A stretch of 64,000 nucleotides of DNA, from NCBI GenBank assembly GCA_964521095.1, contig CAZFPJ010000002.1:149108-213107 (forward strand), in the 5' to 3' direction. The notes under the pieces are model-generated. The model was given only the letters and a program-made list of their open reading frames with translations. It ran no database searches and was not told the DNA's origin. The translations under genes were made by a program, and so were the position numbers. Position 1 is the first letter of the stretch. Each line of letters starts with the position of its first letter. This DNA comes from an uncultured Candidatus Saccharibacteria bacterium. Lineage in GTDB: Bacteria > Patescibacteriota > Saccharimonadia > Saccharimonadales > 2-12-FULL-41-12. Of the stretch, positions 3,889 through 40,422 are shown in pieces.

Positions 3889-3991
3889 ACTTAGGATTAT
3901 ATACCATTAGAGGTTTATATTGACAGATAAGTTTAGACTTAATGATGTAAAGTGACTATGGTATAATCAGATAACACTTCAGAAATAAAAA

Positions 3992-4477
3992 ATGATAATT
4001 CATATAGCAAAAGGTATAGGTCAAGGCCCAACAAAATTATCTGCTTTTGATGCAGCACTTAATGATGCTGGGGTGGCAAATTTTAACTTAATAAAACTAA
4101 GCTCAGTTATACCAACCGGCTCAGAAATAGTCATCCATAAAAAGGCCATTCCCAAAGAGGTTATCAAAGGCGGTTGGGGGGATAAACTGTTTGTCGTTAT
4201 GGCCGAAGAGAGAGAAAACTCCCCCAATGTAGAAGCTTGGGCGGGAATTGGCTGGGTACAAGATGTAAAAACAGGCGAAGGTCTTTTTGTTGAACATGAG
4301 GGGGCCAGCGAACAGTCTGTCAGAAGAGACATCACTCAAAGTCTAGAGGCCTTGATGGCAACTCGCAACATAGACTTTGGAGAGATACACATGGAAGTTA
4401 ATGGTGGTGTCTGCAATCACCATCCAGTTAGCTCGCTTGTTGTTGCTGTATTTCAGTCGGAGCCTTGGCAAAAATAG
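3992..4477 (+). CDS. pdaD: pyruvoyl-dependent arginine decarboxylase
   Basis: 161 aa. N-terminal GPTKLSAFDAAL and self-processing site NLIKLSSVIP (Ser-Ser cleavage motif of PvlArgDC). Confidence 0.85.
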   Translation: MIIHIAKGIGQGPTKLSAFDAALNDAGVANFNLIKLSSVIPTGSEIVIHKKAIPKEVIKGGWGDKLFVVMAEERENSPNVEAWAGIGWVQDVKTGEGLFVEHEGASEQSVRRDITQSLEALMATRNIDFGEIHMEVNGGVCNHHPVSSLVVAVFQSEPWQK

Positions 4478-4499
4478 TAAAATCTGCTATAATATACTT

Positions 4500-5804
4500 A
4501 TGACAGAGAAAAATGTCGAGGATATTCTTGCGAAGCAAGAGGGAGTTGCCATGAACGAACTTCCCCATACTACTACGCCCCAAAGTTCTCCTAGTGTTTT
4601 ACATAGAACCAGGCGAGCGATAGAGATGGGGGTGGTTGCTTTAGAGGTTACCCCTGCAAACGAAACCTTACGCTATGGGGTTTTCGTTGCTACTCTTGCA
4701 GCGACTAAAGATCCTATTCTATCTGCCGGGGCTTTTGGAGTCGCAACCACTGCTATCGAAGGAGTAGGGGCAACGGCTTCCGCAAGTTTACTTGCGTCGC
4801 CCACCGGAGATAAAACAACTAGATGGATTAACAATAAAATTGAAGATTTTGGAGTATCAAAAGACGCTACTGTACCTCCTGTAGCCAAGGCAGGGGTAGC
4901 TCTTTTGGGTGGCTCGGCCATTGTTGTTGGTGTAAAACACAGAGAAGACCCTAACAGGAGCTTTACGGACAATTTCAGGTATGGAGTTGGTTCTGCTGTT
5001 GCTCTTGGCGGAGTTTGCGCTGCCCAGGGATATCTTATGGCAGAAGGCATCACCAATCCAGAGCCAGAAACTATTGGGGGCGCCTTGATTGCTATTGGTG
5101 GTTTGGTCGCCTTTGGAAAGTGGGCAAGAGCTAAATTAGAACAGAAAAAGCTGATACCAGAAGCTACGGACAGTTATATCGAAGAGTTCGACTTGCGAGT
5201 CAGGCTGACAGATGACCCAAGGCAGATAGAGGAAGCCTCGGCTTTAGAGCAAGCGATTTGGGACAAAAATAATTTCGGCTCACTAGATGAGTATAGGAAA
5301 TATGACGATCAGTGCAGAATGTTTGTTGCAGAGGAACAGGGTGAGATAATCGGCGTTACCAGAATGTTTTATGGTGGTCCAGAGTTGCCGCCTTTTATGG
5401 ATTTGCCGTTTTATGACAAAGCCGAGAAAGAGCAAATTGAAAAATCCTGTTTGACTGGCGACATAGAGGAGTTAGGTACGACAGGAATTGATAAAGAGAA
5501 AGATAAAGCACCGAAACATGTCGTTGCTTTAGAGATGTGGCGACTTGCCTACAGAGACGCTATGCAAAGAGGTGTAAAAAACTGGGGTATCATCATGGAG
5601 CCTGAAAGAGTCGAGAAGATGAATCAGAACTTCGGCTTTAAGTTCAAGCAGCTTGGTCCGGCAAAAGACTATCAGGGTGGCGATTGCGCTCCATTTGTTA
5701 TGGACTTACAAGAGGTAGACGCACACATGAGCCAAACTCTGCCCGAGCTATACGATTGGTTTGTCAAGCAGCCCCTGGTCAAAAGACCAAAAGACCAAAA
5801 ATAA
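4500..5804 (+). CDS. membrane-associated protein with C-terminal GNAT-like N-acyltransferase (FeeM/OlsB-like) domain
   Basis: The track ORF starts at 4377 inside pdaD, so the ATG at 4500 (MTEKNVEDIL) is more plausible. The N-terminal half has several Ala/Gly-rich hydrophobic segments. The C-terminal half (EQAIWDKNNFG..MFVAEEQGEIIGVTRMFYGG..EELGTTGI) resembles N-acyl amino acid synthase-type GNATs. Confidence 0.5.
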   Translation: MTEKNVEDILAKQEGVAMNELPHTTTPQSSPSVLHRTRRAIEMGVVALEVTPANETLRYGVFVATLAATKDPILSAGAFGVATTAIEGVGATASASLLASPTGDKTTRWINNKIEDFGVSKDATVPPVAKAGVALLGGSAIVVGVKHREDPNRSFTDNFRYGVGSAVALGGVCAAQGYLMAEGITNPEPETIGGALIAIGGLVAFGKWARAKLEQKKLIPEATDSYIEEFDLRVRLTDDPRQIEEASALEQAIWDKNNFGSLDEYRKYDDQCRMFVAEEQGEIIGVTRMFYGGPELPPFMDLPFYDKAEKEQIEKSCLTGDIEELGTTGIDKEKDKAPKHVVALEMWRLAYRDAMQRGVKNWGIIMEPERVEKMNQNFGFKFKQLGPAKDYQGGDCAPFVMDLQEVDAHMSQTLPELYDWFVKQPLVKRPKDQK

Positions 5805-5849
5805 TAAAGCCTAGTGCTATTCTTTGGTTATATCTTATAATTAGCATTA

Positions 5850-8018
5850 ATGCTTACGCTTTTACTCGGTTTGAGTTGTTTGATCTTGATAATCCTCGCT
5901 TTGACGGTTTATTTTAGTAACTCAAGATCAAAGACAAATGTATATCTTTCCTGGTTTATTCTTGGGGGGTTATTCTGGGTTTTTACAAACCTATTGACCA
6001 ATCTATATTTGACTAACAATAATTTTGTTCAAGGCTTGTTATTTACTCGTTTAGCATTGGTCGGCGCATCTATATTGCCAGTTGCTTTTTTGTTTTTTGC
6101 CATGGCCTTTGTCGGCAAGGAGCAAAGGATGTCAAAATTATCAAAAGCAGGCTACATGACTCCTATTTTATTATTGCTGTTGACAACCTTTACTGACTAT
6201 AACGCCAAGATTATAGACAAAGATGTAGTTACCGGGCAAGCATATTACTTGATAATCTTGATTTTCATAAGTTACTTTTTGTACGGGACAATCTTGCTGG
6301 CTCAACACTATAAAAATGCAGACGCACAGGTAAGGACTCAGTTAAAGTTTATTTTTTTGGGGATAATCTTGAGTGTAGTGCCTGGATTGGTTGTTAATGG
6401 CATACTGCCGGCTATGGGCAACACCAGCCTATCTTATTATGGCTCTGCCGTCGTGATATTTTTTGCGTTCTTTACCTCGATTGCAATTATTAAGCACCAG
6501 CTTTTTAATGTGAGGGCCGCCATAGCTCGGACAGTAGCGTATGGTCTGTTTGTATCGTTTTTAAGTGCTGTATATATTGCAATCATTTTTATTCTGTCTA
6601 GCAAATTAGTTGGCGCCGGATCTGTGTTTGTCAAGCAAGTTGCCCCTATTGCGACGGCTATTTTTCTGGTATTTACTGCCCCTTATTTCAAGCGTATTTT
6701 TGACCGAATTACCAACCGGCTCTTTTATCAGGATGCTTACGATACACAAGGTTTGTTGGACGATTTTAACAAAGCTCTCCTAGATAATATTGAGTTGCCG
6801 ATTTTGTTGAGACATGCAACCTCTGTTATACAAGAGAATCTAAAGAGTCAGTTTTGTACGGTTATCGTTAACACCGAAGGACCAGCGTTAATCAGAAACA
6901 TTGGTACGGCAGACTTGCATTTTTCTGGGGTGCAATTGGCTCAATTGCGACTTGGGCTTGCCGATGAAAACTTCAAGATAGTTGTAGAAGATTTTAACTC
7001 AGAAGACAGTCATATAAAAAGACTGCTCAAGTCTAAAAATGTTGCCTTAGCAATTAGACTTGACGCTAGCTACAGAACAGGTAAGGACTCGTTAGCCTAC
7101 TTGATGTTAGGGCCCAAGAGAAACGGCGGTCCGTATAGCAAAAAAGACCTCAAAATTATAGAAATTATTGCTGACGAACTGGTCATCGCCATCCAGAACG
7201 CTCTGCGTTTTGAAGAGATTCAGGGGTTCGCGTCTACTCTGCAAGAAAATGTCAACGAGGCAACTGCCAAGCTAAAGCATACGAACGAAAAGTTAAAAGA
7301 GATGGATCAAACCAAAGATGAGTTTATTAGTATGGCTTCTCATCAGCTTCGTACACCCCTCACATCTGTTAAGGGCTACCTCAGTATGGTGCTAGAAGGC
7401 GATGTCGGCAAAGTGACGCCAGAGCAAGAAAAACTGCTTAACCAAGCGTTTATTAGCTCTCAGCGCATGGTTTATCTGATAGCCGACCTGCTAAATGTGT
7501 CTCGCCTCAAAACCGGTAAGTTTGTGATTGTGTCTGCCCCGACTGACCTAGCAGAGGTGGTGCAGGGTGAGATAGATCAGTTAACAGAGGTCGCGAAAGG
7601 TAAAAACATTAAGATTAACTATAAACGCCCCAAAGAATTTACTAAACTCATGTTGGATGAAACAAAGATTCGCCAAGTTATAATGAATTTTATAGACAAT
7701 GCTATCTACTATACCCCTGCTAAGGGTAATATAACGGTGATTGTCAAAGAAGACAGAGGCAATGTGTATTTTAGCGTCAAAGACAACGGTATGGGTGTAC
7801 CAAAAGAAGATCAAAAACATCTGTTTACCAAGTTTTACAGAGGTACAAATGCCCGAAAAGCTCGCCCAGATGGTACTGGTTTGGGCCTCTTTATGGCCAA
7901 AAAAGTGGTTTCTGCTCAGGATGGCAATATTTTGTTCGAGAGCCGAGAGGGCAAGGGTAGTACCTTTGGCTTTAGTTTCTCAAAATCCAAGCTTCGCGTC
8001 GAAGATAAACAAGGTTAA
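5850..8018 (+). CDS. sensor histidine kinase with polytopic N-terminal membrane domain
   Basis: About 270 aa of repeated TM helices. H-box SMASHQLRTPLTSVKGY, N-box FIDNAIYYTP, G-boxes VKDNGMGVP and GTGLGLFMAKK. Confidence 0.9.
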   Translation: MLTLLLGLSCLILIILALTVYFSNSRSKTNVYLSWFILGGLFWVFTNLLTNLYLTNNNFVQGLLFTRLALVGASILPVAFLFFAMAFVGKEQRMSKLSKAGYMTPILLLLLTTFTDYNAKIIDKDVVTGQAYYLIILIFISYFLYGTILLAQHYKNADAQVRTQLKFIFLGIILSVVPGLVVNGILPAMGNTSLSYYGSAVVIFFAFFTSIAIIKHQLFNVRAAIARTVAYGLFVSFLSAVYIAIIFILSSKLVGAGSVFVKQVAPIATAIFLVFTAPYFKRIFDRITNRLFYQDAYDTQGLLDDFNKALLDNIELPILLRHATSVIQENLKSQFCTVIVNTEGPALIRNIGTADLHFSGVQLAQLRLGLADENFKIVVEDFNSEDSHIKRLLKSKNVALAIRLDASYRTGKDSLAYLMLGPKRNGGPYSKKDLKIIEIIADELVIAIQNALRFEEIQGFASTLQENVNEATAKLKHTNEKLKEMDQTKDEFISMASHQLRTPLTSVKGYLSMVLEGDVGKVTPEQEKLLNQAFISSQRMVYLIADLLNVSRLKTGKFVIVSAPTDLAEVVQGEIDQLTEVAKGKNIKINYKRPKEFTKLMLDETKIRQVIMNFIDNAIYYTPAKGNITVIVKEDRGNVYFSVKDNGMGVPKEDQKHLFTKFYRGTNARKARPDGTGLGLFMAKKVVSAQDGNILFESREGKGSTFGFSFSKSKLRVEDKQG

Positions 8019-8033
8019 ACCTTGCAACAGGGG

Positions 8034-10625
8034 TTAGCGGAGGCTAATCGTGGTGTCGTTTTCTAGGGAGCCAGTTTGTTCGGTTGGCCGAGGTTTAGTT
8101 TGAGTAGATTTAGCTTTTTCTACGATAGCGCTACCCATGAGTAACTTCTTTTTATTGGTGGTTTTGCGTCGTCTGGTTCGTTTCTTCTTTGTAGCTACCG
8201 TAGCCTCGCTAGGGTCGTGCTCTTGCTTTAGCTCTTTGTCACCCAAGGTTTCTGGGTTATAGGCTGGCTTGTCTGCTTTTACGGGTTTAACTACAGAGGT
8301 GGGCGTAGAGGGGGTTTGCTTGGGGGTTGGCATCTTTTTGTCTCCCAATCCATGACGGTTATGAATATAGCCCTCTACCTCTGTTACAGACAAGGCATAT
8401 TTACGACGGCTTTGGTCTATGATTGCTTCCGAAAAGTCTTCGGAAAAAGGGGATAAGTCTGTAGTAGTAGCCGAAAAAGCCTGCACTTTTTCGCCAGCAA
8501 TAGTCATGCTGATGACAAAATTGCGATTATGCATATGCACCAGGTCGTGTTCGACAAATTTTGGTTCAAAATATTTTAACATAGTTCTGGCATCATCTGC
8601 GCTGGTTCGAAAAGATATAATAGACCCAACATTTCCAAAAACAGCGTCTTTCACGCTCTGCATCATCTGGGCGATGTATTGGTTAGCGACAGTCAGGTTT
8701 AGTCCATATTTTCGGGCTTCGGACAAGATAGTAGCGAACGAATCGGTGGCAAAGTTTTGGAATTCGTCTACATAAAGATAAAACGGCTTACGGTCTTGCA
8801 CGGGGATGTCGGCTCGGCTCATAGCCGCCATCTGTATTTTTGTAACCATCAATGCACCCAAAAGGCCGGCGTTATCTTCGCCAATTAGCCCTCTAGACAG
8901 GTTAACCACCAATATTTTTTGGCCATCCATAATCTCGCGGATATTAAAACCGCCCTTTGGCTGACCGATGATGTTCCTCACCAAGGGGTTGGCGGTAAAA
9001 GCGCCAACTTTGTTTAGAACCGGAGCAACTGCTTCGGCGGCAAATTTGTCGTTCCAGCTGGCAAATTCTACAGTCCAAAAGTTGCGCACCACGGGGTCAT
9101 TAACATGCTCTAGTACTTCATTTCGGAATTTTTTATCTGTTAATATTCGGGTTATGTCCAGCATGGTAGCATCGGGGTAGTCGAGTAAGGCTAGTATGCT
9201 ATAGCGCAAAATATACTCTAGCCTTGGCCCCCAAGAGTCAAACATGCGCTTTAAGACACCGATTAACTCAGAGCAGGCATGAGTACGGAGTTTCGGATCA
9301 CTCACCTCTAAGGGGTTAAACCCTATAGGATAGTCGCTGTCTGAAGGGTTGAAATAAACCACATCATTAACTCTGTTTGCGGGGATTCGTCTTAAAACAT
9401 TCAACGCATAGTCACCGTGAGGGTCGATTACTGCTATGCCTTGTCCAGAGAGGATGTCGGCAGTGGTTAAAAGTTCTAGTAGACCAGATTTTCCAGCGCC
9501 AGTTTGACCAATTATATACAGATGACGACCCCTGTCGCTCCTTGGCATACCAAACAGTGTATTGTGTCCTCTAAAGTTGGTGTTGGCCATCATGCTGACC
9601 TCTGAAGATTGCTTGATCGGCAGGTTAGCTGGCGGTTCGGCTGTGGTGGCATTGGCCCAGAGTATATTTGGCGTTTCTACATTGGCGTGAGGCAGATGAT
9701 ACAGGCTAGCCAACTCCTCAATATTGAGTGTCATCGAGCGCTTGCCGATAAGGCGATTTTGGTAGGCCCTTACCCCTGTTGCTCCAGAGATAGTTTTGTT
9801 GGCCATAAAACCATTTAGATAAGTAGAATTAAACTGTTTAAAACCAGCAACTATAGACTGCAGGCGCATTCGAGCATGGTCTGGGGAATTTTTGCCAGAA
9901 TATACGATCCGCACCGTAGCGCTGTATGCCAGCTTGTGGCTCTTTTCCTCTGCTCCAGAGGCACGGGCAGACTCGTGTTCGGCTAGTTTTGGTGCTGTAC
10001 CCGCCTTTTGCTCTGGTGGCGCGCTAAGAGCTCCTAGCAAGCCCACATAACTACTACTGCTACCACCACCGGCGGTTCGTATATTTTGGGCATATCGCTC
10101 GCTTTTTTTGTACCAACCGCTTTGTGCGGGCCGTACGACTACTTGTATCCAGGCGTCTTCGTCTTCGGCAAATTGAGCCAGACTGGCAGTAATAGCTGCC
10201 AATGGGTCTACCTCGAAGCTAGGGAAGGTTTTAATCGGCAACGGGTCTGGTGCAATCAGCTTAAGCTCGGTCGACACATACTGTGACCCCTGTTTTTGGT
10301 CTTTTGAATAATCTTGAACTTCCGAGATATGAACATTAGGATACTGAGCATATATTTGGTCTTGAATGTATTGTTTTAGACGAGTTGGGCACCAAACAAA
10401 GAAGTTAATCCGGCCATCTACAACGGCTATCTCAAAACTAATTTGATCATGGTTAACAGATGTAAACAGGCCTGTAGATTGCTTGGTAAGTAGTCCGTGT
10501 ATTGCAGCGAGCATTTGTTCGGCGGCTAGTTCCTTTTTTTCATTATTTCGGGGTACTTGGAGCAATAAAACAGAGGTTTTTTCGGATATAACAGCTTGCT
10601 TTTTCTTAAATATCATTATTTGCAA
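8034..10625 (-). CDS. VirD4/TraG-like (type IV coupling protein family) P-loop ATPase with long N-terminal domain and basic C-terminal tail
   Basis: 863 aa. Walker A IIGQTGAGKSGLLE, Walker B PFYLYVDEFQNF, tail ATKKKRTRRRKTTNKKK. No other T4SS genes in the window. Confidence 0.7.
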   Translation of the reverse strand: MQIMIFKKKQAVISEKTSVLLLQVPRNNEKKELAAEQMLAAIHGLLTKQSTGLFTSVNHDQISFEIAVVDGRINFFVWCPTRLKQYIQDQIYAQYPNVHISEVQDYSKDQKQGSQYVSTELKLIAPDPLPIKTFPSFEVDPLAAITASLAQFAEDEDAWIQVVVRPAQSGWYKKSERYAQNIRTAGGGSSSSYVGLLGALSAPPEQKAGTAPKLAEHESARASGAEEKSHKLAYSATVRIVYSGKNSPDHARMRLQSIVAGFKQFNSTYLNGFMANKTISGATGVRAYQNRLIGKRSMTLNIEELASLYHLPHANVETPNILWANATTAEPPANLPIKQSSEVSMMANTNFRGHNTLFGMPRSDRGRHLYIIGQTGAGKSGLLELLTTADILSGQGIAVIDPHGDYALNVLRRIPANRVNDVVYFNPSDSDYPIGFNPLEVSDPKLRTHACSELIGVLKRMFDSWGPRLEYILRYSILALLDYPDATMLDITRILTDKKFRNEVLEHVNDPVVRNFWTVEFASWNDKFAAEAVAPVLNKVGAFTANPLVRNIIGQPKGGFNIREIMDGQKILVVNLSRGLIGEDNAGLLGALMVTKIQMAAMSRADIPVQDRKPFYLYVDEFQNFATDSFATILSEARKYGLNLTVANQYIAQMMQSVKDAVFGNVGSIISFRTSADDARTMLKYFEPKFVEHDLVHMHNRNFVISMTIAGEKVQAFSATTTDLSPFSEDFSEAIIDQSRRKYALSVTEVEGYIHNRHGLGDKKMPTPKQTPSTPTSVVKPVKADKPAYNPETLGDKELKQEHDPSEATVATKKKRTRRRKTTNKKKLLMGSAIVEKAKSTQTKPRPTEQTGSLENDTTISLR

Positions 10626-10710
10626 TTATAACACCTGTAGAAGTCATAAAAAAGACTAAGCATAATCTCTTTGAACAGAGAAAGTAATTTTAATATGCTT
10701 AACCATAATA

Positions 10711-10739
10711 TTGACAAATTATAATATTTATGCTAAATT
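10711..10739 (+). promoter_or_regulatory. sigma70-like promoter (TTGACA-17nt-TAAATT); its -35 overlaps a divergent TTGTCA -35 on the minus strand
   Basis: TTGACA at 10711-10716, a 17-nt spacer, TAAATT at 10734-10739. On the minus strand, TTGTCA-16nt-TATTAA faces the VirD4-like gene. Confidence 0.4.
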
Positions 10740-11000
10740 GTATAGTGAAATCGTATTCCGCGGTGGGGTGGAGCTCACAAGGGACCGATCGCAGGTTAAC
10801 AATTTGGTAAATTAACGAACTAATACTCGAACAGTCGAGGTTAGCTCGTCTAGTTTGTAGAAATATAAATATGCAAACTAGGTAGTCATGGGTCTTTAAG
10901 TATTTAGAGCTTGCTTCCCAGCAGTGCTCCTTAAATCGCACCCAAACCGACTATTACAATACGAAAACAAGCTATGTAGTTTTTCTAGCAAAACGATATC

Positions 11001-11028
11001 TCGCTTGATTTTTTGGCAGAACACTTTG
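11001..11028. repeat. left imperfect direct repeat bounding the GC-rich island (TCGCTT-N12-GAACACTTTG)
   Basis: TCGCTT at 11001-11006 and GAACACTTTG at 11019-11028 recur at 12762-12767 and 12776-12785. Confidence 0.6.
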
Positions 11029-11050
11029 GTGATAAACACTTGTCGCCCGA

Positions 11051-11071
11051 GGTGTTCTGTCAAAGAACACC
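11051..11071. promoter_or_regulatory. perfect 8-bp stem palindrome GGTGTTCT-N5-AGAACACC upstream of the island gene (operator-like)
   Basis: Read directly from the sequence. The GAACAC/GTGTTC motif also occurs at 11019, 12738 and 12776. Confidence 0.4.
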
Positions 11072-11140
11072 AAAAAGCGTGATATCGATCTGATCAATCG
11101 GTTTCACTAAAACCCAGCCATCATCGGGAGGTGATAGCTC

Positions 11141-12415
11141 ATGATCAAGAGGAAAACAGTAACCCTGATCGCACTTGTCACCTTCATGGTGGCTGGTATG
11201 GTCTTCAGCGCAGGAGTGGCCTCAGCCAACTCTGTCGGTCAATGTAATGTCTACCCGGGCAACACGGTGACTTCGGTCTCCGAGCTGCTGAGCGTTCTCC
11301 GCAAGGAGCGCGTGACAGGGCAGGCGAAAAAGGTGTTCCGTTCTGCGGGATACCACCCCACCGACCAGTCGCTCCGGCAGTGGATGGGGCAACGAGTCAT
11401 TCGTGCTCGCTCGCACCGTTCGTTTCGCGCAGTCGACTATGGTTGTCGCAATGGACGACTCTTCTCTGTGGGGACTCGTTCCTACGGCAGAGGCAAGTCG
11501 ATCTTCGTGGCTCTTCCCAAGGCATACGCCAAGGGAGACTTCCGCACTCGCAGGAGTGGGAGCTACAACAAGAAGATCGTCATTCGCGTCCGGGCAATTG
11601 CCCTGTCAGATTGTGGAAACCCCGTCAAGGGATCTACCACGATCGTGATTTGGGTCAAGGGCCACAAGTTGCCACCGCCGCCGGTTAAGCCACCGAACGG
11701 TGATGGAGGACAGGTTGTCGTTTGTCAGACGGGGTATATCCTTGTCGGCAACACTTGCGTACAGCAAGTGATAACCTGTTCGGCTGGATTCGTACTGAAT
11801 GCACAAGGAAACTGCGTGCAACAGACAAACCTGGCCCAGCAGAATTGTGAAGCGCAAGGGGGTTCGTACAATACGATCACCAACTTGTGCACCATCATCC
11901 AGGTGACCGGCAATTGTTCGAATATAACCGTGATAAACGGTTCGAACAACGTCGTGGAAGTTCGACAAGAGGGGAACTGCAACAGCAGTACTCCGCCACC
12001 GCCAGCTCAGTGCCCCGATGGGAGTCTCGTGCCTCCATCTGGTATCTGCGATCGTCCACCGACGATCATGCATATTGGGCAAACGGCGCACACTATGCCA
12101 GGAAACTGGAGGTATGTGTGGTTCCGGGTAACGGATCCTGACGGCGACGGCGTTGATTCATTCAACATCGTTGGCTCGAGCCCATATGCTCACCTCGTCG
12201 TTAACGGCGAAGTTAGCATGGTGCCGGGTGATACAGGAGAAGTCCCGTGTCCGACAGGTTCGCAGTGCTTTCGCGCTACGCTCTGGGCAGACTATGTACC
12301 CGCAGGTACTGGTCCAGAAGGAGTTCAGGCAGAGTTCACTGCAATTGCATCGGCAGGTGGCAAGGACGCCAATCCGCTCCCGCTGAGTTTCACCATCATT
12401 CCGGTGATTCCTTAG
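11141..12415 (+). CDS. secreted Cys- and Pro-rich protein of unknown function (compositionally foreign)
   Basis: Strong SD GGGAGGTGA 8 nt upstream. Signal peptide ...VFSAGVASA/NS. Duplicated motif C.(T/A)G(Y/F).L....CVQQ, PPPPVKPP and TPPPPAQCP linkers. G+C visibly higher than the flanks. Confidence 0.75.
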   Translation: MIKRKTVTLIALVTFMVAGMVFSAGVASANSVGQCNVYPGNTVTSVSELLSVLRKERVTGQAKKVFRSAGYHPTDQSLRQWMGQRVIRARSHRSFRAVDYGCRNGRLFSVGTRSYGRGKSIFVALPKAYAKGDFRTRRSGSYNKKIVIRVRAIALSDCGNPVKGSTTIVIWVKGHKLPPPPVKPPNGDGGQVVVCQTGYILVGNTCVQQVITCSAGFVLNAQGNCVQQTNLAQQNCEAQGGSYNTITNLCTIIQVTGNCSNITVINGSNNVVEVRQEGNCNSSTPPPPAQCPDGSLVPPSGICDRPPTIMHIGQTAHTMPGNWRYVWFRVTDPDGDGVDSFNIVGSSPYAHLVVNGEVSMVPGDTGEVPCPTGSQCFRATLWADYVPAGTGPEGVQAEFTAIASAGGKDANPLPLSFTIIPVIP

Positions 12416-12761
12416 TGACAGCGTAAAAAAATGTGCAAGATGACCAACGGTCAACTAACAGGGCAAGTAGATTCCCGAAACATGGTATTCATACCAAACC
12501 TCGGATAGAAATCTGCGACGCGCTCTAAAAGATCACGGTGATCTTGCACTACATAGTTTTATGGTACATTTCCCGACGGGGGGAGGACGAGGACCAGTCG
12601 ATTAACTCGGCTTGGACTGGTTCTGGGTAATGTACTTTTCGATAACCTCCGGCTGGTTAAGCTAGTTTAGCTTTAGAGCAGGATGCTCTGGCAACTAGCT
12701 TCCAGTTGGGAGGAGAGTTGTAGTCGGTTGTGGGCAGGTGTTCACGAAGATCTAGCGTATT

Positions 12762-12785
12762 TCGCTTTTTCTGTCGAACACTTTG
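12762..12785. repeat. right imperfect direct repeat bounding the GC-rich island (TCGCTT-N8-GAACACTTTG)
   Basis: Matches the left copy at 11001-11028; 10 nt exact plus 6 nt exact. Confidence 0.6.
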
Positions 12786-12963
12786 CCCCGCCGGCTGCTT
12801 CTTTATTTTTTGTTGAGCTTTTTAGCTCCAAATTATTTAGAAGCAGCCAATACACCATATATTTTTCAGTTTTCCTTGAAGACACGATGACTACTTAGTT
12901 TGTAATAAGTTTTTAGCAAAATATTAACCTAAATTTTAATTTTAAGAAGAGAGGAATACTTAT

Positions 12964-13632
12964 ATGAATAAATTAAGTAAACTTTTTATGCTTGCTGTAG
13001 CTACTTCGACGCTGGCTTTTAGCGGTGTTGCATCGGCTGCTCAAGTAGACGGCGGTAATATCTATTACTCGCAAAATGTAACTCAAAATAGCGCGTTTGG
13101 TGATCCAACCTCTGCTAACCCATGTGACACAGTATTGTACAGGGTTCGTTTGCATAACGGTGGCCCAGAAGTACTAGATAATGTTAATGTGCGGATTGAC
13201 ATGCCTTCTAACGAAGGTACTAGTTTTAGCTCTACAGCTACAACTACTGCAAGCAACGGTGTTCCAGCTGTAGTTAGCGATACTGCTTCTGTGACTTCGT
13301 CTGCTACAACTCGAATTAGCTTTGTGCCAGGTAGCGCCCAGCTACTCGATGCCAATCATGGTGTCATCTCATCTTTATCAGACAGTCTTGTGACTACTGG
13401 TGTTGATGTTGGTAGTGTTGGTGTTTCGACTCAACAGATTCGTTTTGTTCAGTTTAGGGCTTCTTTAAGCTGCCCTACAACTCCTCCAGAGACTCCAGAA
13501 AACCCTGGTGTTCCTACTCCAGAAACTCTTCCAGAGACTGGTGCAGGTAACGCAGTTGCAGTTTTTGTTGCTGTTACTGCTGTAAGTACGCTTGCTTACT
13601 CTGTTGTTTCTAGGCGTTTGAGTCGTCAGTAA
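12964..13632 (+). CDS. LPXTG-anchored cell-surface protein (sortase substrate)
   Basis: SD AGAGAGGAA. Signal peptide ...FSGVASA/AQ. C-terminal sorting signal LPETG plus a hydrophobic stretch plus RRLSRQ. Confidence 0.85.
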   Translation: MNKLSKLFMLAVATSTLAFSGVASAAQVDGGNIYYSQNVTQNSAFGDPTSANPCDTVLYRVRLHNGGPEVLDNVNVRIDMPSNEGTSFSSTATTTASNGVPAVVSDTASVTSSATTRISFVPGSAQLLDANHGVISSLSDSLVTTGVDVGSVGVSTQQIRFVQFRASLSCPTTPPETPENPGVPTPETLPETGAGNAVAVFVAVTAVSTLAYSVVSRRLSRQ

Positions 13633-13806: not shown

Positions 13807-13874
13807 TTGTTCAAGAATTTGTAGAAACACCCCTGTTAATGATATGATTAGCGGGTTAACTTTTCTGTTTAGAC

Positions 13875-14044
13875 GGCCCCATCGTGCAGGCGGCTAGGAC
13901 ACCGGGTTTTCACTTTTGCAATAGGGTGAAAACTGCCAGTGGCAGTTTGCAAGGAAACCTTCCGATGAAAGCTATGCTTTCAATAGCGAAGTTTCGGGCT
14001 CGCCGGAGGTGAGTCGATTCCGAATCGAACCAGCCTTGAGGTAT
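13875..14044 (+). pseudogene. tRNA-Glu-like sequence interrupted by a 104-nt structured insert (element copy A, 13918-14021), with degenerate anticodon stem and acceptor 3' strand
   Basis: The 5' half, GGCCCCATCGT..GGCTAGGACACCGGGTTTTCA, is nearly identical to the real tRNA-Glu downstream. After CAATAGGG the insert follows, then GAGTCGATTCC, a 12-nt extra segment and CCTTGAGGTA (versus CCTTGGGGTC). Confidence 0.55.
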
Positions 14045-14066: not shown

Positions 14067-14141
14067 GGCCCCATCGTCTAACGGCTAGGACACCGGGTTT
14101 TCATCCCGGCAATAGGGGTTCGATTCCCCTTGGGGTCACCA
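14067..14141 (+). tRNA. tRNA-Glu (anticodon UUC), CCA encoded
   Basis: Manual cloverleaf: acceptor GGCCCCA/TGGGGTC, anticodon stem CCGGG/CCCGG with loop TTTTCAT, T-arm AGGGG-TTCGATT-CCCCT, then ACCA. Confidence 0.95.
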
Positions 14142-29911: not shown

Positions 29912-30550
29912 ATGGGTGGAGAACAAATGCAAAGCTGGCTTGGGACAATTTTGGTTGTTAGCTCGATTATGACGGCTACTCTCGCCTTTATTTGGGTGGC
30001 AGTTAGGCTAGGCAAAGGCCAAGGTGGTCAAGATAACAAAGACCAAGATTACGCGCAGTCTGCCGAAAAAGATGTAGAGCACATTTTTAACGATGAATTT
30101 CGTGAGGAGCTTCGCAACAGGGGGCGCCTACACTTTGAGAAAATTATTGGCGAAAATGCCATGTTTTTGCAACAGGACTTGCGCTTGACGACTACCCAGA
30201 TAAATGACTATATGAAGCAAGAGATTACCAAGACTCTTCACGACGCTTTTAAAAAATACGAAGAATCAATTACTAATGCTAAAGAAATGGCGCTAGAATC
30301 GATTCAAAAAACCCAAGAGGCAGTCGAGGATCAGCGCAAGACGATGGGCGAACAGATAGACCACGAAATCGCCGAGGAAAAGCGTAGAGTCCTAGAGCAG
30401 TTCGAACAGAACATGACAGATATTGTTAACCACTATGTGCTTGGTGCTATCGGAAACCAGATTAACCTAGAAGACCAGCTAGAGTATATCTTGGGCGAGC
30501 TAGAGAGGAATAAAAAATCTATTATCGAGGACATAGAGGCTGGCGCATGA
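29912..30550 (+). CDS. atpF: F-type ATPase b-like peripheral-stalk subunit (TM + coiled coil)
   Basis: N-terminal TM LGTILVVSSIMTATLAFIWVAV, then ~170 aa of charged heptad-like sequence. Position immediately 5' of the delta gene. Confidence 0.5.
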   Translation: MGGEQMQSWLGTILVVSSIMTATLAFIWVAVRLGKGQGGQDNKDQDYAQSAEKDVEHIFNDEFREELRNRGRLHFEKIIGENAMFLQQDLRLTTTQINDYMKQEITKTLHDAFKKYEESITNAKEMALESIQKTQEAVEDQRKTMGEQIDHEIAEEKRRVLEQFEQNMTDIVNHYVLGAIGNQINLEDQLEYILGELERNKKSIIEDIEAGA

Positions 30551-31041
30551 GTGATGCAAAGACAAAGCTACTGGTTCCAGCTCGCTTGATTAGTTTCGTA
30601 GACCTGTCTCGGGTAGTTCGGGAGCTCGATACACTTGACGATGCTCTGCGACAAGCTTCTATTAGGAACAGCGGACAGAGCGTGCAACTGCCCCGAACCA
30701 CTCAGATGCTCGAAGATACGGCTACTATCAACGGACTTTCTTTGCTAGACGCTAAACACCGCGAAGTTCTCTTGGGCGCCCTAAAGAAATTTCAAACTAA
30801 TCCACCACTAATACATATGAGTTTCACTGTTGAGCCCTCGGCCAAGTTTGTCGAAAAGATGATCACCTGGCTCCGCGCTAACATTAAGGACAATATCCTT
30901 CTAGAGATTGGCCTGCAGCCTACGATTGTTGCCGGTTGCGTAGTGCGAACCCAGAACAAAGTTTTCGACATGAGCCTGCGAGCTAATTTATCCGAGAAGC
31001 GAGATGTACTGGTTAGCTACATAGCAGGAGGCAAAGCTTGA
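30547..31041 (+). CDS. atpH: F-type ATPase delta (OSCP)-like subunit
   Basis: 4-nt overlaps with both neighbours. C-terminus [26 protein letters not shown] matches the delta pattern (..liGG..v..g..v.D.S.r..L). Confidence 0.65.
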
Positions 31042-32461
31042 ACGATAACCAGCATTTCGAGAAGCTTGTCGCCAGCGGTCAGCCAGTGGGCGAAGTTATA
31101 GCTGTCGATAAATTTTTAGCACTCGTTAGAGGCTTGAATCCGATAAGCATACACGCACTTATTATGTTTGAAGATGGATCTAAAGGATTCGTCAGAGAAG
31201 TCCTAGAGGACCATGTGGCTGTTCTGCACCTTGGCTCCGAGCCAATAACTGTTGGTTCGGTTGCGGTAGTCCAGCACCACAGTTTGGTCTGTCGGGTTGG
31301 TAAAGATTACATAGGTAGAGTGGTTTCTGTTATGGGCCAACCCTTGGACGGCAAGGGTCCAATAGCTGCCGACGATACATGGCCAGTTTTTAATGTAGCC
31401 CCTCCTATTTACGAGCGAGAGCTTTTAGATACGCAACTAGAGAGTGGCGTCTCGGTTGTTGACGCTATTTTGCCTCTAGTTAGAGGACAGCGCATAGCCC
31501 TGCTTGGAGACAGTAAGTCTGGCAAAACTGCCCTAGCTGCTCAGCTAACTATTAATCAAAAAAATACCGATCAAATCGTTGTTTATTGTTTAGTCGCCAA
31601 ACGGCGAAGCGATGTAGATGCGCTATTGGCAAAACTAGAAGAAACTGGCGCTTTAAAGACAGCTATTGTTGTTGTGTCTACCATGTTCGAGTCTTTGGTC
31701 ATGAGCTACCTAGCGCCTTATGTTGCCTGTGCCATGGCCGAATATCTGTGGCAAAAATGCGATCAAGACACCATTATTATTTATGACGATCTGACTTCAC
31801 ACGCTCACGCTCACAGAGAGATATCTTTGTTAAGTGGTGTTAGCCCGGGTCGTGACTCGTATCCGGGTGATATGTTTTATTCGCACTCTAGCCTCTTAGA
31901 GCGGGCCGGTCGTTTGCACTCAAACGGCAAGTGTCTAACCAGTATCCCTCTGGTATTAGTGCCAAACGGCGATATTACGGCGTATCTACCGACTAACATC
32001 ATGTCTATTACAGACGGCCAGTGGATTTTGGATATGAACTTGTTCAGAAGCGGTATTCGCCCCTCGGTTAACATTGGTCTTAGTGTGACTCGTGTTGGTG
32101 GCGTGGGTCACAACAAGCGACAAAAACAGTTTGCAGTACAGTCTCTAAAACTACTGGCAGAGTACCGGCAGGCCGAGGAGTTTGCTCACTTTGGTTCGGA
32201 GCTTGCCCTGGAGTCGAAAGCTGTTTTAGAAAAAGGCGCTAATGTCATGAAGTTGCTCAACCAAGGGCCGACCGACACCTACAGCTTGCTTGCTCAGCAA
32301 CTAATGCTAGACATAGTTTTAAACGCAGAAGAGTCTGAAAAGGTTGATATAGATAGCCTAAAAACTCAGGTTATGGAATACGCTCAGAAGATCAAAAAAG
32401 ATGACGAATACGAAAAGATCCGCACCGAGCTAAAGCAAAAGTCAATTGTGGAGCTCAAAAA

Positions 32462-32465
<4 letters not shown>
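31038..32465 (+). CDS. atpA: F-type ATPase alpha subunit (divergent)
   Basis: TTG start after AGGAGG. P-loop [41 protein letters not shown]. 475 aa. Confidence 0.85.
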
Positions 32466-34617
<2,152 letters not shown>

Positions 34618-37729: not shown

Positions 37730-39004
37730 ATGAAAATTAGTAGAACATCATTTTTCGGTAGCTCTGCCAGAGGGCAAAAAGCTATCATCTGGACACAAGT
37801 TTTTGTGTTGGCACTGTTTTCGCTCGTGCCATTGGTTGCCGGAACCAACAAAGTCAACGCCTTGCCACAGCTTACAGAAAGATCTATAGAAGTCAGCACA
37901 TCTAAACCAAGTGCTACCAATGTTACCTACAAATACGGCTTTAAGCCAGCTACGACCGGTACGCTACAAAGCGTAAAATTCGAAGCTTGTACAACACCGC
38001 TAGGTACTTGTACCGCCCCCGGTGGCACAACTCAGATGAACGCTGGTAGCGAATCTGCTCGTTCTGGTTGGGCTGGTTCAACTACATTCACTCGTACGGC
38101 AGGCTCTAACGACTGTACTGCAGCCAACAACATACTGTGTATACACAGGACAGATGTAACTTCAGAGGGCACCAGCGCTAAATCGCTCACCTGGGATACT
38201 CAGACTAATCCGACCGCTGTTGCTTCGTACTATGTTCGTATTACAACCTATAGCGACGACTCATGGAATACGGCTGTGGACGAAGGTGTTGTAGCTTACG
38301 CTATCATCAACCAGCTAACAGTTAACGCTCGTGTGCAGGAAAACCTACAATTCTGCGTAGGTGCTACCACAGTAGATGACGCTACTACTTCTCCTGGTGG
38401 TGATTGCTCAAATATTTCTGGTAGTACGGTAGATATCGGTGCTATTGACACTACTATAGCTACCTCTCCAGTGCCTGTAACTCCCAACGGTGGCAATAAC
38501 CTCAACGGTGTAGCCATGGTCCGAACTAACGCCAATAATGGAACGATAATTGGTTATTTTGCCGAACAAAACATGAGTAGCGGTAAACTTAAAGTGACTG
38601 GAGCTACTTGTTCTGGGACTTCTACTACCGACCAATGTTTTAACAGCCAAGGCGCAACTCAGGGTACATTTGTAGCCGCTACAGAAAATTTTGGCATGAC
38701 TATCGGTGGCGTTAACTGCGGTAGTACCACAGCCTACTCTTGTGCTTTTGCATCAGATACCAACAACCTAAAACAACTAACTGATTACATAGGTAATACA
38801 GCCACAGCCTACGGTACATCAACTGGTTTTGCATGGGTAGACACTGGTACAGCAACCACGCCTATAGCTAGTAGCGCCAGCAGTACCATCAAGGTGTTAG
38901 ACGATGAAGCCTTGATATTAAAGTTCGCTGCTGTTGCTTCTGCTACCACCCCAACCGGTGCCTACACAGTTGTCAGTACATATATTGCAACGCCAACCTT
39001 CTAG
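37730..39004 (+). CDS. secreted paired-Cys fibre-subunit-like protein, paralog 1
   Basis: Signal/anchor VFVLALFSLVPLVAG. Five close Cys pairs. LQFCVGAT, ENFGMTIGG. C-terminal TGAYTVVSTYIATPTF. No LPXTG or TM at the C-terminus. Confidence 0.7.
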   Translation: MKISRTSFFGSSARGQKAIIWTQVFVLALFSLVPLVAGTNKVNALPQLTERSIEVSTSKPSATNVTYKYGFKPATTGTLQSVKFEACTTPLGTCTAPGGTTQMNAGSESARSGWAGSTTFTRTAGSNDCTAANNILCIHRTDVTSEGTSAKSLTWDTQTNPTAVASYYVRITTYSDDSWNTAVDEGVVAYAIINQLTVNARVQENLQFCVGATTVDDATTSPGGDCSNISGSTVDIGAIDTTIATSPVPVTPNGGNNLNGVAMVRTNANNGTIIGYFAEQNMSSGKLKVTGATCSGTSTTDQCFNSQGATQGTFVAATENFGMTIGGVNCGSTTAYSCAFASDTNNLKQLTDYIGNTATAYGTSTGFAWVDTGTATTPIASSASSTIKVLDDEALILKFAAVASATTPTGAYTVVSTYIATPTF

Positions 39005-39081
39005 TTGTACAATAGGCTTAAGCTAAATTAGATGAAGCGCATTTTAAAAGTAAAAATCAATCAATCGAGGGGAGAATAGGT

Positions 39082-40377: not shown

Positions 40378-40422
40378 CGATACTGTAGCCTAACAAGTTA
40401 AGTTATTGTTACAATAAGCGGG

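Follow-up and report, generated by a model that had tools for sequence, protein, structure and literature searches.

Organization of the locus

The window (the whole 64-kb stretch of DNA that was analysed) carries two genes, X and Y, preceded by a promoter and a leader and separated by a structured spacer. The features of this region are the following:

10711–10739, + strand: sigma-70-type promoter, TTGACA-17-TAAATT with a TG extension, upstream of the leader and gene X
10746–10847, + strand: leader part 1, with the blocks GGTGGGGTGGAG (10762–10773) and TTAACAATTT (10796–10805) conserved in the alignment
10848–10858, + strand: 'anti-A' segment TCTAGTTTGTA, able to form a local hairpin with the 5' half of A
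10873–10900, + strand: element A, GCAAACTAGGTAGTCATGGGTCTTTAAG, 5' half of the proposed long-range helix
10946–10954, + strand: element B, ACCGACTAT, 5' half of the proposed inner helix
11005–11072, + strand: hairpin H1 of the leader, about 28 bp, dG −34.8 kcal/mol, z −7.3
11127–11135, + strand: Shine-Dalgarno sequence GGGAGGTGA, 5 nt before the ATG of X
11141–12415, + strand: gene X, an ORF of 424 aa for a predicted Cys-rich secreted modular protein, with GC-rich third codon positions
Residues ~31–178 of X: alpha/beta N-domain, followed by a Pro linker
Residues ~195–285 of X: Cys-rich core, followed by a Pro/Cys linker
Residues ~300–424 of X: Ig-like C-domain
12416–12719, + strand: extra structured 3' untranslated stretch, about 48–50% GC
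12720–12728, + strand: element B', GTAGTCGGT, complementary to B
12731–12790, + strand: hairpin H2, dG −25.5, z −4.5
12790–12852, + strand: hairpin H3, an inverted repeat (GGCTGCTTC...GAAGCAGCC) without a canonical U-tract, dG −28.9, z −7.0
12876–12903, + strand: element A', reverse complement of A, ending about 60 nt upstream of the start codon of Y
12964–13632, + strand: gene Y, 222 aa, with signal peptide, DUF11-like Ig domain, LPETGAG, hydrophobic segment, and RRLSRQ
14067–14141, + strand: tRNA-Glu(UUC) gene, a conserved neighbor downstream of the X-Y module, given for context

The promoter is the best match in the region, with 10/12 positions plus the TG, and in an alignment of 10 loci its TTGACA and its TG-extended −10 vary little or not at all. 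Leader part 1 gave a z of −1.15 when folded as a single sequence, and no consensus pairs with RNAalifold, the alignment being poor. The Rfam search of 10600–13000 returned nothing credible at E ≤ 5, leaving the leader without a family match, and at the gathering thresholds the only match in the whole window is tRNA-Glu. The local hairpin formed by anti-A is present in the minimum free energy fold of 10845–10957 (dG −33, z −5.0). Segments resembling anti-A are also visible by eye in most other leaders. Hairpins H1, H2, and H3 each fold far better than shuffled sequences. At nearly every locus a long hairpin lies between B and the Shine-Dalgarno sequence, these hairpins being unrelated in sequence, and in L034 the stem of H1 is preserved through a G·U change. 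The strong Shine-Dalgarno sequence of X that had been pointed out in the original prediction is indeed there, and GGAGGTG is found upstream of X in most loci.

Downstream of X, the stretch 12416–12719 is common to the nearest relative L033 only, as seen by blastn, and in most other loci B' lies a few to about 50 nt after the stop codon of X. Searching with 152 family proteins by tblastn revealed no coding remnant in the spacers and no silent X cassette elsewhere in the window. The interval between X and Y holds no canonical terminator, its sole terminator-like site being a weak 5-bp stem inside H3.

Gene X and its composition

The protein encoded by X starts with a signal-peptide-like segment, MIKRKTVTLIALVTFMVAGMVFSAGVASA, and its translation displays the signal peptide, the proline linkers, and the two C..G..L....CVQQ modules that had been described beforehand. 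The product is very likely secreted, as was also proposed. The AF2 model has a mean pLDDT of 77, with the N- and C-domains at 80–95, and the Foldseek search gave weak Ig-like adhesin matches only (best E = 5e-4, TM about 0.37 on the target). According to this model the C-terminal domain is Ig-like, the adhesin-type fold matches being weak. Searches against Pfam, NCBIfam, and PDB sequences gave no match for X. Its family comprises 313 library representatives, which carry no taxonomy labels, and no description of gene X, of its composition, or of its leader was found in the literature.

It is clear that gene X differs from its surroundings in composition. Its GC content is 55.8% against a mean of 44.3% for the 64-kb window (z = 6.0), and the other 1275-bp windows of this stretch have a mean of 44.3%, an SD of 1.9, and a maximum of 48.8, so that the GC maximum of the whole window is the ORF of X. 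The anomaly that was first noticed from single lines of sequence is therefore real, and the possibility that a proper calculation would make it vanish can be put aside, given that X stays significantly different (z = 6, and more than 5 SD at third positions). The GC content at codon positions 1, 2, and 3 is 0.565, 0.499, and 0.612, respectively, the last value (GC3) comparing with an expected 0.416 ± 0.042 in the window. Amino acid content alone predicts 48.7% GC for X, and the rest of the excess is synonymous. The amino acids are also shifted toward GC-rich codons, with Arg above Lys and with Gly, Pro, and Val raised. Codon usage looks foreign, C-ending and G-ending codons both being raised. 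With GC1 and GC2 near 0.5 and Ala at 6.9%, the excess sits chiefly at third codon positions and is not spread as it would be in a high-GC genome. Overlap of X by other ORFs was seen on both strands, as had been reported, with six of at least 80 aa where eight had been counted.

Conservation of the X-Y module

The promoter, the leader of about 400 nt, X, the structured spacer, and Y are found as one module at 13 distinct Saccharimonadales loci, with the promoter and the leader blocks kept despite upstream genes that differ (TrwB-like ATPase, SecA, histidine kinase, LepA). In nine distinct loci X is followed by a homologue of Y of about 220–250 aa (315 in L001) with an LPxTG/VNTG-type tail, in three further loci by a downstream ORF of Y-like size, and Y comes after X at all loci with enough sequence. 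Beyond Y, where the contigs extend far enough, a tRNA-Glu gene is found in five loci (the window, L001, L006, L010, and L033) and a tRNA-Met gene at one locus instead. The matches in the genome collection are two Saccharimonadales MAGs, and the relatives for which taxonomy or genomic context is available all belong to Saccharimonadales; viral contigs yielded no relative. What the data show directly for this module is its synteny and composition, the complementarity of its flanking elements with their covariation and G·U bias, and the mosaic of domains (see below).

The tail motif of Y, ...TLPETGAGNAVAVFVAVTAVSTLAYSVVSRRLSRQ, is visible in its translation and in the homologues. Against TIGR01167 the protein scores 13.5 for a cut-off of 15.9, and its DUF11 and LPXTG HMM matches likewise fall below their cut-offs. 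Judged from these sequence features, Y is a putative sortase-anchored surface protein and conserved partner of X.

The compositional anomaly is conserved together with the gene order. Over the 13 loci, in genomes of 38–59% GC, the GC3 of X ranges from 0.56 to 0.94 and has no relation to background GC (r = 0.02), whereas background GC is tracked by the GC of the leader (r = 0.95) and by the GC3 of Y (r = 0.83). This indicates that the anomaly is located at the synonymous sites of X and is clade-wide, and this conservation makes it stranger than first proposed. Codons ending in A account for 0–17% of the codons of X at each of the 13 loci, AAG is favored over AAA at every locus, and in L016 the fraction of A at third positions is 0.00. 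The excess is even along the whole CDS, neither the core, which evolves slowly, nor the C-domain common with the nearest relative being an exception, and it ends at the CDS boundaries, leader and spacer composition following each genome.

The protein itself is a mosaic. The N-domain is 70% identical to P0002 and 24% to P0004, the C-domain is 73% identical to P0004 and 19% to P0002, and for the core the nearest proteins are P0011 and P0012, with 56–58% identity. Homology between the window and the nearest relative (L033/L034) ends at 11192 and resumes at 12011. The mosaic between lineages indicates exchange within the clade, below the level of the gene. Of the horizontal acquisition suggested originally, what holds is this domain-level exchange within the family, and not a foreign island.

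The proposed genomic island

The original prediction interpreted X as an island of about 1.7 kb, possibly of high-GC actinobacterial origin, inserted between the VirD4-like and LPXTG genes and bracketed by TCGCTT...GAACACTTTG repeats that would be att or target-duplication remnants. Both repeat strings are at the positions given for them, and both GAACACTTTG and the composite pattern occur in the window at these two places only. Their similarity, however, lies within chance expectation, given that the local alignment of leader and X-Y spacer scores 16 for the repeat pair against 13.4 ± 1.8 for shuffled sequences (p = 0.12), and the two spacers match best locally in another stretch, which is AT-rich. 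In the nearest relative (L033/L034) the upstream string reads GGACACTTTG and the downstream one GAACTTCTTG, and these differing strings mean that the repeat pair is not maintained. The left repeat (11001–11028) is held in H1 together with GTGTTC/GAACAC motifs, and the right one (12762–12785) lies in the arms of H2 with the GTGTTC of 12738 and the GAACAC of 12776. The bracketing repeats are thus present without being significant, and they were rejected as att sites because of their chance-level score, their loss in the nearest relative, and their position in arms of different hairpins. As to the clustering of GAACAC/GTGTTC, five of the 26 hexamers of the window do fall in the two intergenic regions, but the motif is absent from the orthologous spacers of L001, L006, L008, and L009. 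For this reason the significance attributed to the clusters is lost, and GAACAC was rejected as a conserved transcription-factor motif.

What remains in favor of an island is the composition of X, with its real GC excess (z = 6) and foreign-looking rise of C- and G-ending codons, and the tRNA gene 1.6 kb downstream. These have to be set against the presence of X, with equal anomaly, in an equal module at the 13 distinct loci, and against the leader and spacer, whose composition is native and tracks each genome. The original prediction had itself remarked that integrase and transposase are missing, and no integrase, transposase, or recombinase was found within about 10 kb among the called genes and their Pfam matches. 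An empty site was not seen among the loci examined, X lying between the conserved leader and Y at each of the 13, a sampling that is biased given that these loci were found through X itself. Orthologs do occupy the same position in the relatives, although not with native composition, since the GC3 anomaly is present in the homologues as well. The host as donor is disfavored by the relatives found, which occur in Saccharimonadales contexts and not in viral contigs, and by GC1 and GC2 near 0.5 and an Ala content of 6.9%, unlike a high-GC genome. The island model, with its acquisition through att or target-duplication repeats, is largely refuted and has become extremely improbable, and a host-derived acquisition of X is not supported.

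Complementary elements around gene X

At all 13 loci X is bracketed by A/A' (25–33 bp) and B/B' (about 10 bp), 1.5–2.0 kb apart. In the window the A/A' elements are about 28 nt long and the brackets are 2.0 kb apart, with a duplex of 28 bp and dG −40.1, and element A is unique in the 64 kb apart from its inverted copy A'. The A:A' duplex has a dG of −33 to −41 kcal/mol in 13/13 loci, while shuffled sequences give −12 ± 3. In the two helices 87.9% of the cells are paired, against 81.0 ± 0.8% after shuffling (0/500 shuffles reach the observed value), and 18/38 pairs have changed on both sides, against 10 ± 1.7 (0/500), figures which are not true probabilities because the 13 loci are related and the shuffle and binomial tests overstate their independence. 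The covariation score is 0.317 against 0.182, and helix registers slid out of place have 28–42% of their cells paired. In the inner helix (B/B') 87.7% of the cells are paired, and five of its ten pairs have changed on both sides. The alternative local A:B and B':A' stems display no covariation and were rejected as an alternative fold for this reason.

The helix is also asymmetric between strands. At 11/13 loci stability is higher for the sense duplex than for the antisense one (Wilcoxon p = 0.003), and 37 G·U pairs are found against 14 A·C pairs (p = 0.002, with the same reservation about related loci), in segments that have no G+T skew. DNA-level homogenization, or one protein binding at both sites, would also give covariation of inverted repeats, and it is the G·U asymmetry only that favors RNA specifically over DNA-level causes. 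On this comparative evidence, A/A' and B/B' point to a helix that joins the 5' and 3' parts of the RNA over a long range, much as in an rRNA processing stalk.

A 17-mer of element A has 14 matches in viral contigs (two giant-virus bins, a single phage family, and two others). The promoter, B, an inverted copy, and an Rfam match are lacking from all of them, and they were treated as chance matches.

Interpretation and alternative explanations

The reading that we prefer, with a probability of roughly 0.6, is that of a surface-protein operon that is vertically conserved in Saccharimonadales and is not an island, in which A/A' and B/B' form an RNA loop around X and the GC3 of X is under selection. 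The strong promoter at 10711–10739 would drive the leader of about 400 nt, X, the structured spacer, and Y. X would be a modular, disulfide-rich secreted protein, and Y an Ig-like protein anchored to the cell wall through its LPXTG-type tail. In the primary transcript A/A' and the nested B/B' would pair, closing X into a loop, and the double-stranded stem may be a site of RNase III-type processing or of end protection, which would separate and stabilize the messages of X and Y. The GAACAC 'repeat' hairpins H1 and H2 would be further stabilizing structures in the untranslated regions. We infer co-transcription over 2 kb, pairing in vivo, and cleavage by RNase III, as well as the cause of the GC3 excess. 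This excess is attributed to selection on the coding RNA or codons of X (mRNA stability or structure, or expression), and not to recent foreign origin, given that GC3 is 0.56–0.94 clade-wide regardless of genome GC; recombination within the family possibly helps to keep X GC-rich. In its most specific form, a surface-protein mRNA resembling an rRNA precursor, with a helix of about 28 + 10 bp looping out the CDS and silent GC maintained by selection on the RNA, the proposal is tentative, and the odds are somewhat against it.

A/A' and B/B' may instead act as DNA, as an invertible switch, as terminal inverted repeats of a cassette, or as paired operators. Phase variation typically targets surface-protein genes, and here inverted repeats of 28 and 10 nt flank a gene of this kind and are conserved in sequence beyond complementarity, with lineage-specific states (TAGTC, TAGTT, TAGAC, TAGAA) common to both copies. 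Nonetheless, the segment has one orientation relative to the promoter and Y in the 13 distinct loci and in all P0002 contigs listed, as read from consensus assemblies, in which a minor orientation could be hidden. The promoter lies outside the A–A' segment, upstream of A, so that an inversion would be no normal on/off switch. A recombinase is absent within about 10 kb and a second copy within the 64 kb, visual inspection of the flanks revealed no target-site duplication, and the breakpoints of domain exchange (~11192 and ~12011) are inside the CDS, away from the repeats. Together with the sense-strand G·U bias (37 vs 14; p = 0.003 for stability), which is not expected of a DNA site, this makes a DNA-level role quite improbable. 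For the GC3 excess, translational selection would require X to be the most highly expressed gene, S-layer-like, with G/C-ending codons optimal in the clade. The strong extended promoter, the strong Shine-Dalgarno sequence, and the long leader with stabilizing hairpins would suit such a gene, and the bias is confined to the CDS and to third positions. After X, the highest GC3 in the window is that of the ATP-synthase genes (0.46–0.51), a mild rise that suits expression-linked codon choice and in which Phe, Tyr, His, Asn, Thr, and Val shift as in X but Lys, Leu, and Ile, the most extreme in X, do not. Given also that ribosomal protein L25 has a GC3 of 0.40 and that Y, the presumably co-transcribed neighbor, is biased in the opposite direction and has the lowest in the window (0.27), this explanation is rather unlikely. 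No ribosomal-protein operon, from which optimal codons could be defined, was found in the 10-kb extensions at both ends of the window.

The excess could also be a by-product of recombination in a shared Saccharimonadales pool of X, by GC-biased conversion or through the composition of the pool, a reading that is compatible with the RNA-stalk model. In its favor, the domains clearly form a mosaic, homology with L033/L034 is interrupted between 11192 and 12011, and the amino acids of X are shifted toward GC-rich codons as well. Saccharibacteria are naturally competent (PMC12857230). Against this, the excess is uniform over the CDS, including the slow core and the shared C-domain, and stops at its boundaries, with leader and spacer tracking the genome. 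The variation of GC3 from 0.56 to 0.94 between loci indicates that there is no common pool value, and the A3 of 0.00 in L016 resembles selection more than conversion bias. Recombination as the cause is, for these reasons, unlikely, and a little more so than translational selection.

Saccharibacteria are obligate epibionts, in which the surface and secretion machinery decides the host they are attached to. Being an order-wide module in which X is predicted to be secreted and has lineage-swapped domains, X-Y is a candidate host-contact pair, and both genes are good candidates for the genetic tests that are now feasible in cultured strains. Atypical GC content and codon usage are widely taken as evidence of horizontal transfer. 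X has a 'foreign' composition in genomes of 38–59% GC, although the composition of its untranslated regions goes with that of the genome, and composition-based island callers will flag it wrongly. The cause of its GC3, be it RNA or codon selection or recombination bias, is testable. If the proposed helix is real, it would constitute a previously undescribed control of processing, stability, or X:Y stoichiometry, exerted on a hypervariable protein that may mediate contact with the bacterial host.

Comparison with known systems

With genomic islands and integrative elements at tRNA genes, X shares an atypical GC content and codon usage and a nearby tRNA gene. It differs from them in that an integrase is absent, the direct repeats are not significant, and presence/absence polymorphism was not seen, and in an anomaly that is limited to one CDS and conserved clade-wide. 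The signal peptide, Ig-like DUF11-type domain, LPETG, hydrophobic segment, and basic tail of Y resemble those of Gram-positive sortase-dependent surface or pilus proteins, and X resembles adhesins in its Ig-like and Cys-rich modules. Unlike in sortase or pilus operons, X lacks a sorting signal, the adjacent genes include no sortase, and the HMM scores of Y are below cut-off.

Pairing between 5'UTR and 3'UTR occurs in the icaR mRNA of S. aureus and the hbs mRNA of Bacillus subtilis, and by bringing distant untranslated regions of one message together it influences how stable the mRNA is and how RNases cleave it. These duplexes are shorter than A/A' and species-specific, and the icaR pairing masks the ribosome-binding site, whereas the Shine-Dalgarno sequence of X is about 230 nt downstream of A, outside the helix. 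In the hok mRNA of plasmid R1, pairing of the 5' and 3' ends of the full-length message is inhibitory and a metastable hairpin forms at the 5' end. The 5' end of the X message would likewise pair with its 3' end, and anti-A could hold A in a temporary hairpin until A' is transcribed. However, the hok message codes for a toxin, measures about 400 nt, and is under the control of an antisense RNA, while X has a loop of about 2 kb, encodes a secreted surface protein, has no antisense RNA known, and has local alternative stems that lack covariation.

In rRNA operons, processing stalks that serve as RNase III substrates arise by pairing of the 16S and 23S flanks across 1.5–3 kb. The RNA of X is, in contrast, an mRNA that encodes a protein and continues into a second cistron, for which cleavage is a proposal, and we know of no conserved clade-wide stalk around an mRNA. 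A clade-wide helix on a 2-kb mRNA, if true, would bring a protein-coding message under rRNA-type processing or fold-back control. As in the rRNA stalks, complementary segments 1.5–2.0 kb apart enclose a functional RNA, the helix of about 28 bp with an inner one of about 10 bp is conserved with covariation, and the sequence inside has a higher GC content than the genome.

Composition of gene X

The segment at 11001-12785 was originally predicted to be an acquired GC-rich island bounded by direct repeats. The GC enrichment is real and lies in gene X (11141-12415, forward strand), which codes for a secreted Cys-rich protein of 424 amino acids. This open reading frame has 55.8% GC (z = 6.0), the highest value in the window, where the other 1275-bp windows of the 64 kb have a mean of 44.3%, an SD of 1.9 and a maximum of 48.8%. 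The amino acids of the X protein combined with the window-average codon usage predict 48.7% GC (44.7 ± 2.2 for other genes), and the rest of the excess is synonymous, with a GC3 of 0.612 versus the expected 0.416, a deviation of more than 5 SD that is beyond that of any other gene. Codons ending in C and in G are both increased (TTC 0.85 versus 0.22; AAG 0.87 versus 0.37; CTC and CTG together 0.74 versus 0.21). The shadow ORFs over the gene, its strong Shine-Dalgarno sequence (GGGAGGTGA) and, in the protein, the signal-peptide-like N-terminus, the proline linkers and the duplicated C..G..L....CVQQ modules are all present.

The highest GC3 of the window after X is that of the ATP-synthase genes (presumed operon 29912-34617; 0.46-0.51), a slight increase like that of X, which may reflect a mild expression-linked codon bias to G/C-ending codons; ribosomal protein L25 has no GC3 shift (0.40).

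Conservation of the module

The X protein has no match in Pfam, NCBIfam or PDB sequences. Homologues numbered 13 by word-indexed search and 313 representatives (E ≤ 1e-3) by exhaustive profile search, and none was found in viral contigs. Genomic context was obtained for 13 distinct X loci, and the arrangement of promoter, leader, X, spacer and Y is conserved as a module, laid out in the window as follows.

10711-10739: promoter
10746-10847: promoter-proximal leader
10873-10900: element A, GCAAACTAGGTAGTCATGGGTCTTTAAG, the strongest conserved leader block
10946-10954: element B, ACCGACTAT, in the leader, 3' of A
11005-11072: hairpin H1, dG -34.8 kcal/mol, z -7.3
11141-12415, forward strand: gene X
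12416-12719: structured stretch of about 300 nt, 48-50% GC
12720-12728: element B', reverse complement of B
12731-12790: hairpin H2, dG -25.5 kcal/mol, z -4.5, arms GGGCAGGTGTTC and GAACACTTTGCCC
12790-12852: hairpin H3, dG -28.9 kcal/mol, z -7.0
12876-12903: element A', reverse complement of A
12964-13632, forward strand: gene Y, putative LPXTG-type protein

In the alignment of the upstream regions of 10 loci, TTGACA is invariant and is accompanied by a TG-extended -10 and conserved leader blocks. The promoter-proximal leader and its equivalents in 11 loci carry the conserved blocks GGTGG(A/G)... and TTAACAAT along with inserts of variable length (0-60 nt); a consensus structure did not emerge for this part, which could serve to bind a protein or a ligand. 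At one locus (L016, 2035-2790), a very GC-rich region of approximately 750 nt with many inverted repeats precedes the X promoter; it has neither a called gene nor an Rfam match. Past the X stop codon, the structured stretch has complementary arms at 12433-12445 and 12537-12549, contains no detected protein-coding remnant, and is common only to the nearest relative (L033); elsewhere B' mostly lies a few to about 50 nt past the stop.

Gene Y is found 3' of X at every locus with enough sequence, as a translated homologue in nine and as a same-sized ORF in three more. Its homologues have approximately 220-250 amino acids (315 in L001), with a signal peptide, a DUF11-like domain, an LPETG/LPNTG-type motif, a hydrophobic segment and a basic tail. 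A tRNA-Glu follows Y wherever the contig is long enough, with one exception that has tRNA-Met. The gene upstream of the module differs by locus (TrwB/DUF8128 ATPase, SecA, histidine kinase or LepA). The species-level genome collection gave two X-locus matches, both Candidatus Saccharimonadales MAGs.

At locus L006 the TrwB/DUF8128 ATPase gene (3895-6447) is reversed relative to X when compared with the window. The interval from tRNA-Glu to PGK (9446-13418) at this locus contains approximately 10 small genes, one of them for a YafQ-type toxin, and resembles a lineage-specific insertion at the tRNA. In the window, a truncated copy of tRNA-Glu(UUC) (13869-13926; 5' two-thirds, about 88% identical, lacking the T-arm and 3' acceptor end, and uncalled by ARAGORN) precedes the intact gene (14067-14141) by about 140 nt and may be a remnant left at the tRNA by an old rearrangement or integration.

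Origin of the GC anomaly

Background GC over the 13 loci ranges from 0.38 to 0.59, while X has a GC of 0.52-0.64 and a GC3 of 0.56-0.94. For the 12 loci with more than 2 kb of flanking background (L034 was left out), background GC is correlated with leader GC (r = 0.95) and with the GC3 of Y (r = 0.83), and is uncorrelated with the GC3 of X (r = 0.02). A-ending codons make up 0-17% of X codons in all loci (0.00 in L016), Lys is encoded more often by AAG than by AAA at every locus, and the GC excess is even along the coding sequence. In the window, the GC3 of Y is the lowest of all (0.27; window 0.416 ± 0.042), a bias opposite to that of the adjoining X, and Y homologues of other low-GC loci (L001, L006, L015, L032) also have very low GC3 (0.18-0.31).

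The GC anomaly is thus limited to the X coding sequence, mainly to its silent positions, and is a family property kept over deep divergence (32-49% amino-acid identity); for this reason, recent acquisition cannot explain it. The suggestion that a high-GC actinobacterial host was the donor is also not supported, given that a gene of such origin would have GC-rich first positions and be Ala-rich, whereas GC1 and GC2 of X are near 0.5 across loci and its protein has only 6.9% Ala, with 5.9% Asn. Speculatively, a GC-rich X coding sequence might be selected for message stability, or for being less prone to mispair with A and A', which are AU-rich.

Domain exchange in protein X

The AF2 model of the X protein (mean pLDDT 77) consists of a confident alpha/beta N-domain with blocks at 89-95, a Cys-rich beta core of lower confidence, and an Ig-like C-domain at 80-90. 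Foldseek gave at best weak Ig-like adhesin matches (e.g., SrpA, E = 5e-4).

Identity (%) of each domain to the X protein of the window
Homologue: N-domain, Cys-rich core, C-domain
P0002: 70, 37, 19
P0004: 24, 43, 73
P0011: 19, 56, 27
P0012: 20, 58, 17

When the DNA of the window is compared with that of the nearest relative (L033/L034), homology extends from A to 11192 (79-82%) and again from 12011 through Y (69%), with none detectable between 11192 and 12011. Together with the contrasts in domain identity, this gap shows X to be a modular protein that recombines within its own family, as expected of a surface protein under diversifying selection. Horizontal acquisition holds only as domain exchange within the X family.

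Elsewhere in the window, there are three consecutive paralogous genes (37730-41472; 424, 431 and 349 aa) whose products begin with a signal-peptide-like segment and whose GC2 is unusually high (0.53-0.56), the first two with a common ...STSKPSATNVTY.YG motif; they are probably another surface-protein set.

Repeats and complementary elements flanking X

Both strings predicted as direct repeats are present at 11001-11028 and 12762-12785, and in the window GAACACTTTG is confined to these two places, but their similarity is within chance (local-alignment score 16 versus 13.4 ± 1.8 in shuffles; p = 0.12). The nearest relative has GGACACTTTG upstream and GAACTTCTTG downstream at these sites. RNA folding places the GAACAC/GTGTTC motifs, noted at both ends of the segment, in the stem arms of hairpins: H1 holds the left repeat and the 11019 and 11052 motifs, while H3 is without such a motif. 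The motifs are absent from the corresponding spacers of the other loci checked (L001, L006, L008, L009), and a long hairpin of unrelated sequence occupies the H1 position in nearly every locus. With the same module in 13 loci, a conserved GC3 anomaly and repeats within chance, the island reading is largely refuted.

The untranslated regions on both sides of X carry very stable hairpins as well as complementary elements, nested within one another, that covary and show a bias to G·U. B' and A' are found, in nested order, in the X-Y spacer of every locus; where this distance was checked, some 35-60 nt separate the end of A' from the Y start that follows. A is single in the 64 kb apart from its own inverted copy. 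The A:A' duplex has 25-33 bp and a dG of -33 to -41 kcal/mol in all 13 loci (shuffled partners -12 ± 3). Across the 13 mutually related sequences of the helix alignment, 87.9% of cells are paired versus 81.0 ± 0.8 in shuffles, and both sides have changed in 18 of 38 pairs versus 10 ± 1.7, values reached by none of 500 shuffles in either case; in slid registers pairing is only 28-42%. Both copies carry the same lineage-specific states (TAGTC, TAGTT, TAGAC, TAGAA; GTTGG in L008 and L013). The local alternative stems A:B and B':A' have no covariation.

A 17-mer of A also occurs in a highly conserved stretch, TTGCCACACGAACTAGGTAGTTATGGG...CCCGGCACTTACCTCGCACCAGCC..., common to ten IMG/VR viral contigs (L017-L019, L022, L023, L025, L026, L028-L030). 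This stretch has no Rfam match, promoter, element B or inverted copy, and is probably unrelated to the module.

Covariation alone does not distinguish an RNA helix from DNA inverted repeats, such as those of a DNA switch or a mobile cassette. In 11 of 13 loci, however, the sense duplex exceeds the antisense duplex in stability (mean -36.7 versus -31.2 kcal/mol; Wilcoxon p = 0.003), and transition mismatches are more often G·U than A·C (37 versus 14; p = 0.002) in segments with no G+T skew, both of which favor sense-strand RNA. Against a DNA-level element, the segment has one orientation only in all loci, the promoter lies outside A to A', no recombinase lies within about 10 kb, no second copy exists in the 64 kb, no target duplication was noticed by eye in the flanks, and the breakpoints of domain exchange fall inside the X coding sequence, away from the repeats. 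From these sequence comparisons, we consider, with moderate confidence, that A/A' and B/B' pair as an RNA helix.

Proposed mechanism and comparison with known systems

Given that there is no canonical terminator between X and Y, a single transcript would run from the promoter through A'. Pairing of A with A' and of B with B' would enclose X in a loop of the kind seen in rRNA precursors, and the stem might be processed or protect the ends, uncoupling the fates of the X and Y messages. The segment at 10848-10858, upstream of A, may pair with A in a transient hairpin before A' has been transcribed.

Further work is merited by the GC3 anomaly, which is conserved, and by the proposed RNA bracket; the island reading is ordinary. 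The X segment lacks four of the five features that define a recently acquired island, and two of the three that define an invertible switch. Its leader and bracket belong to no curated RNA family, and no description of the module was found in the literature. The ideas on mechanism were taken from rRNA processing stalks, from the fold-back inhibition of hok, and from the UTR pairing of icaR and hbs; the X bracket would be a variant of long-range UTR pairing.
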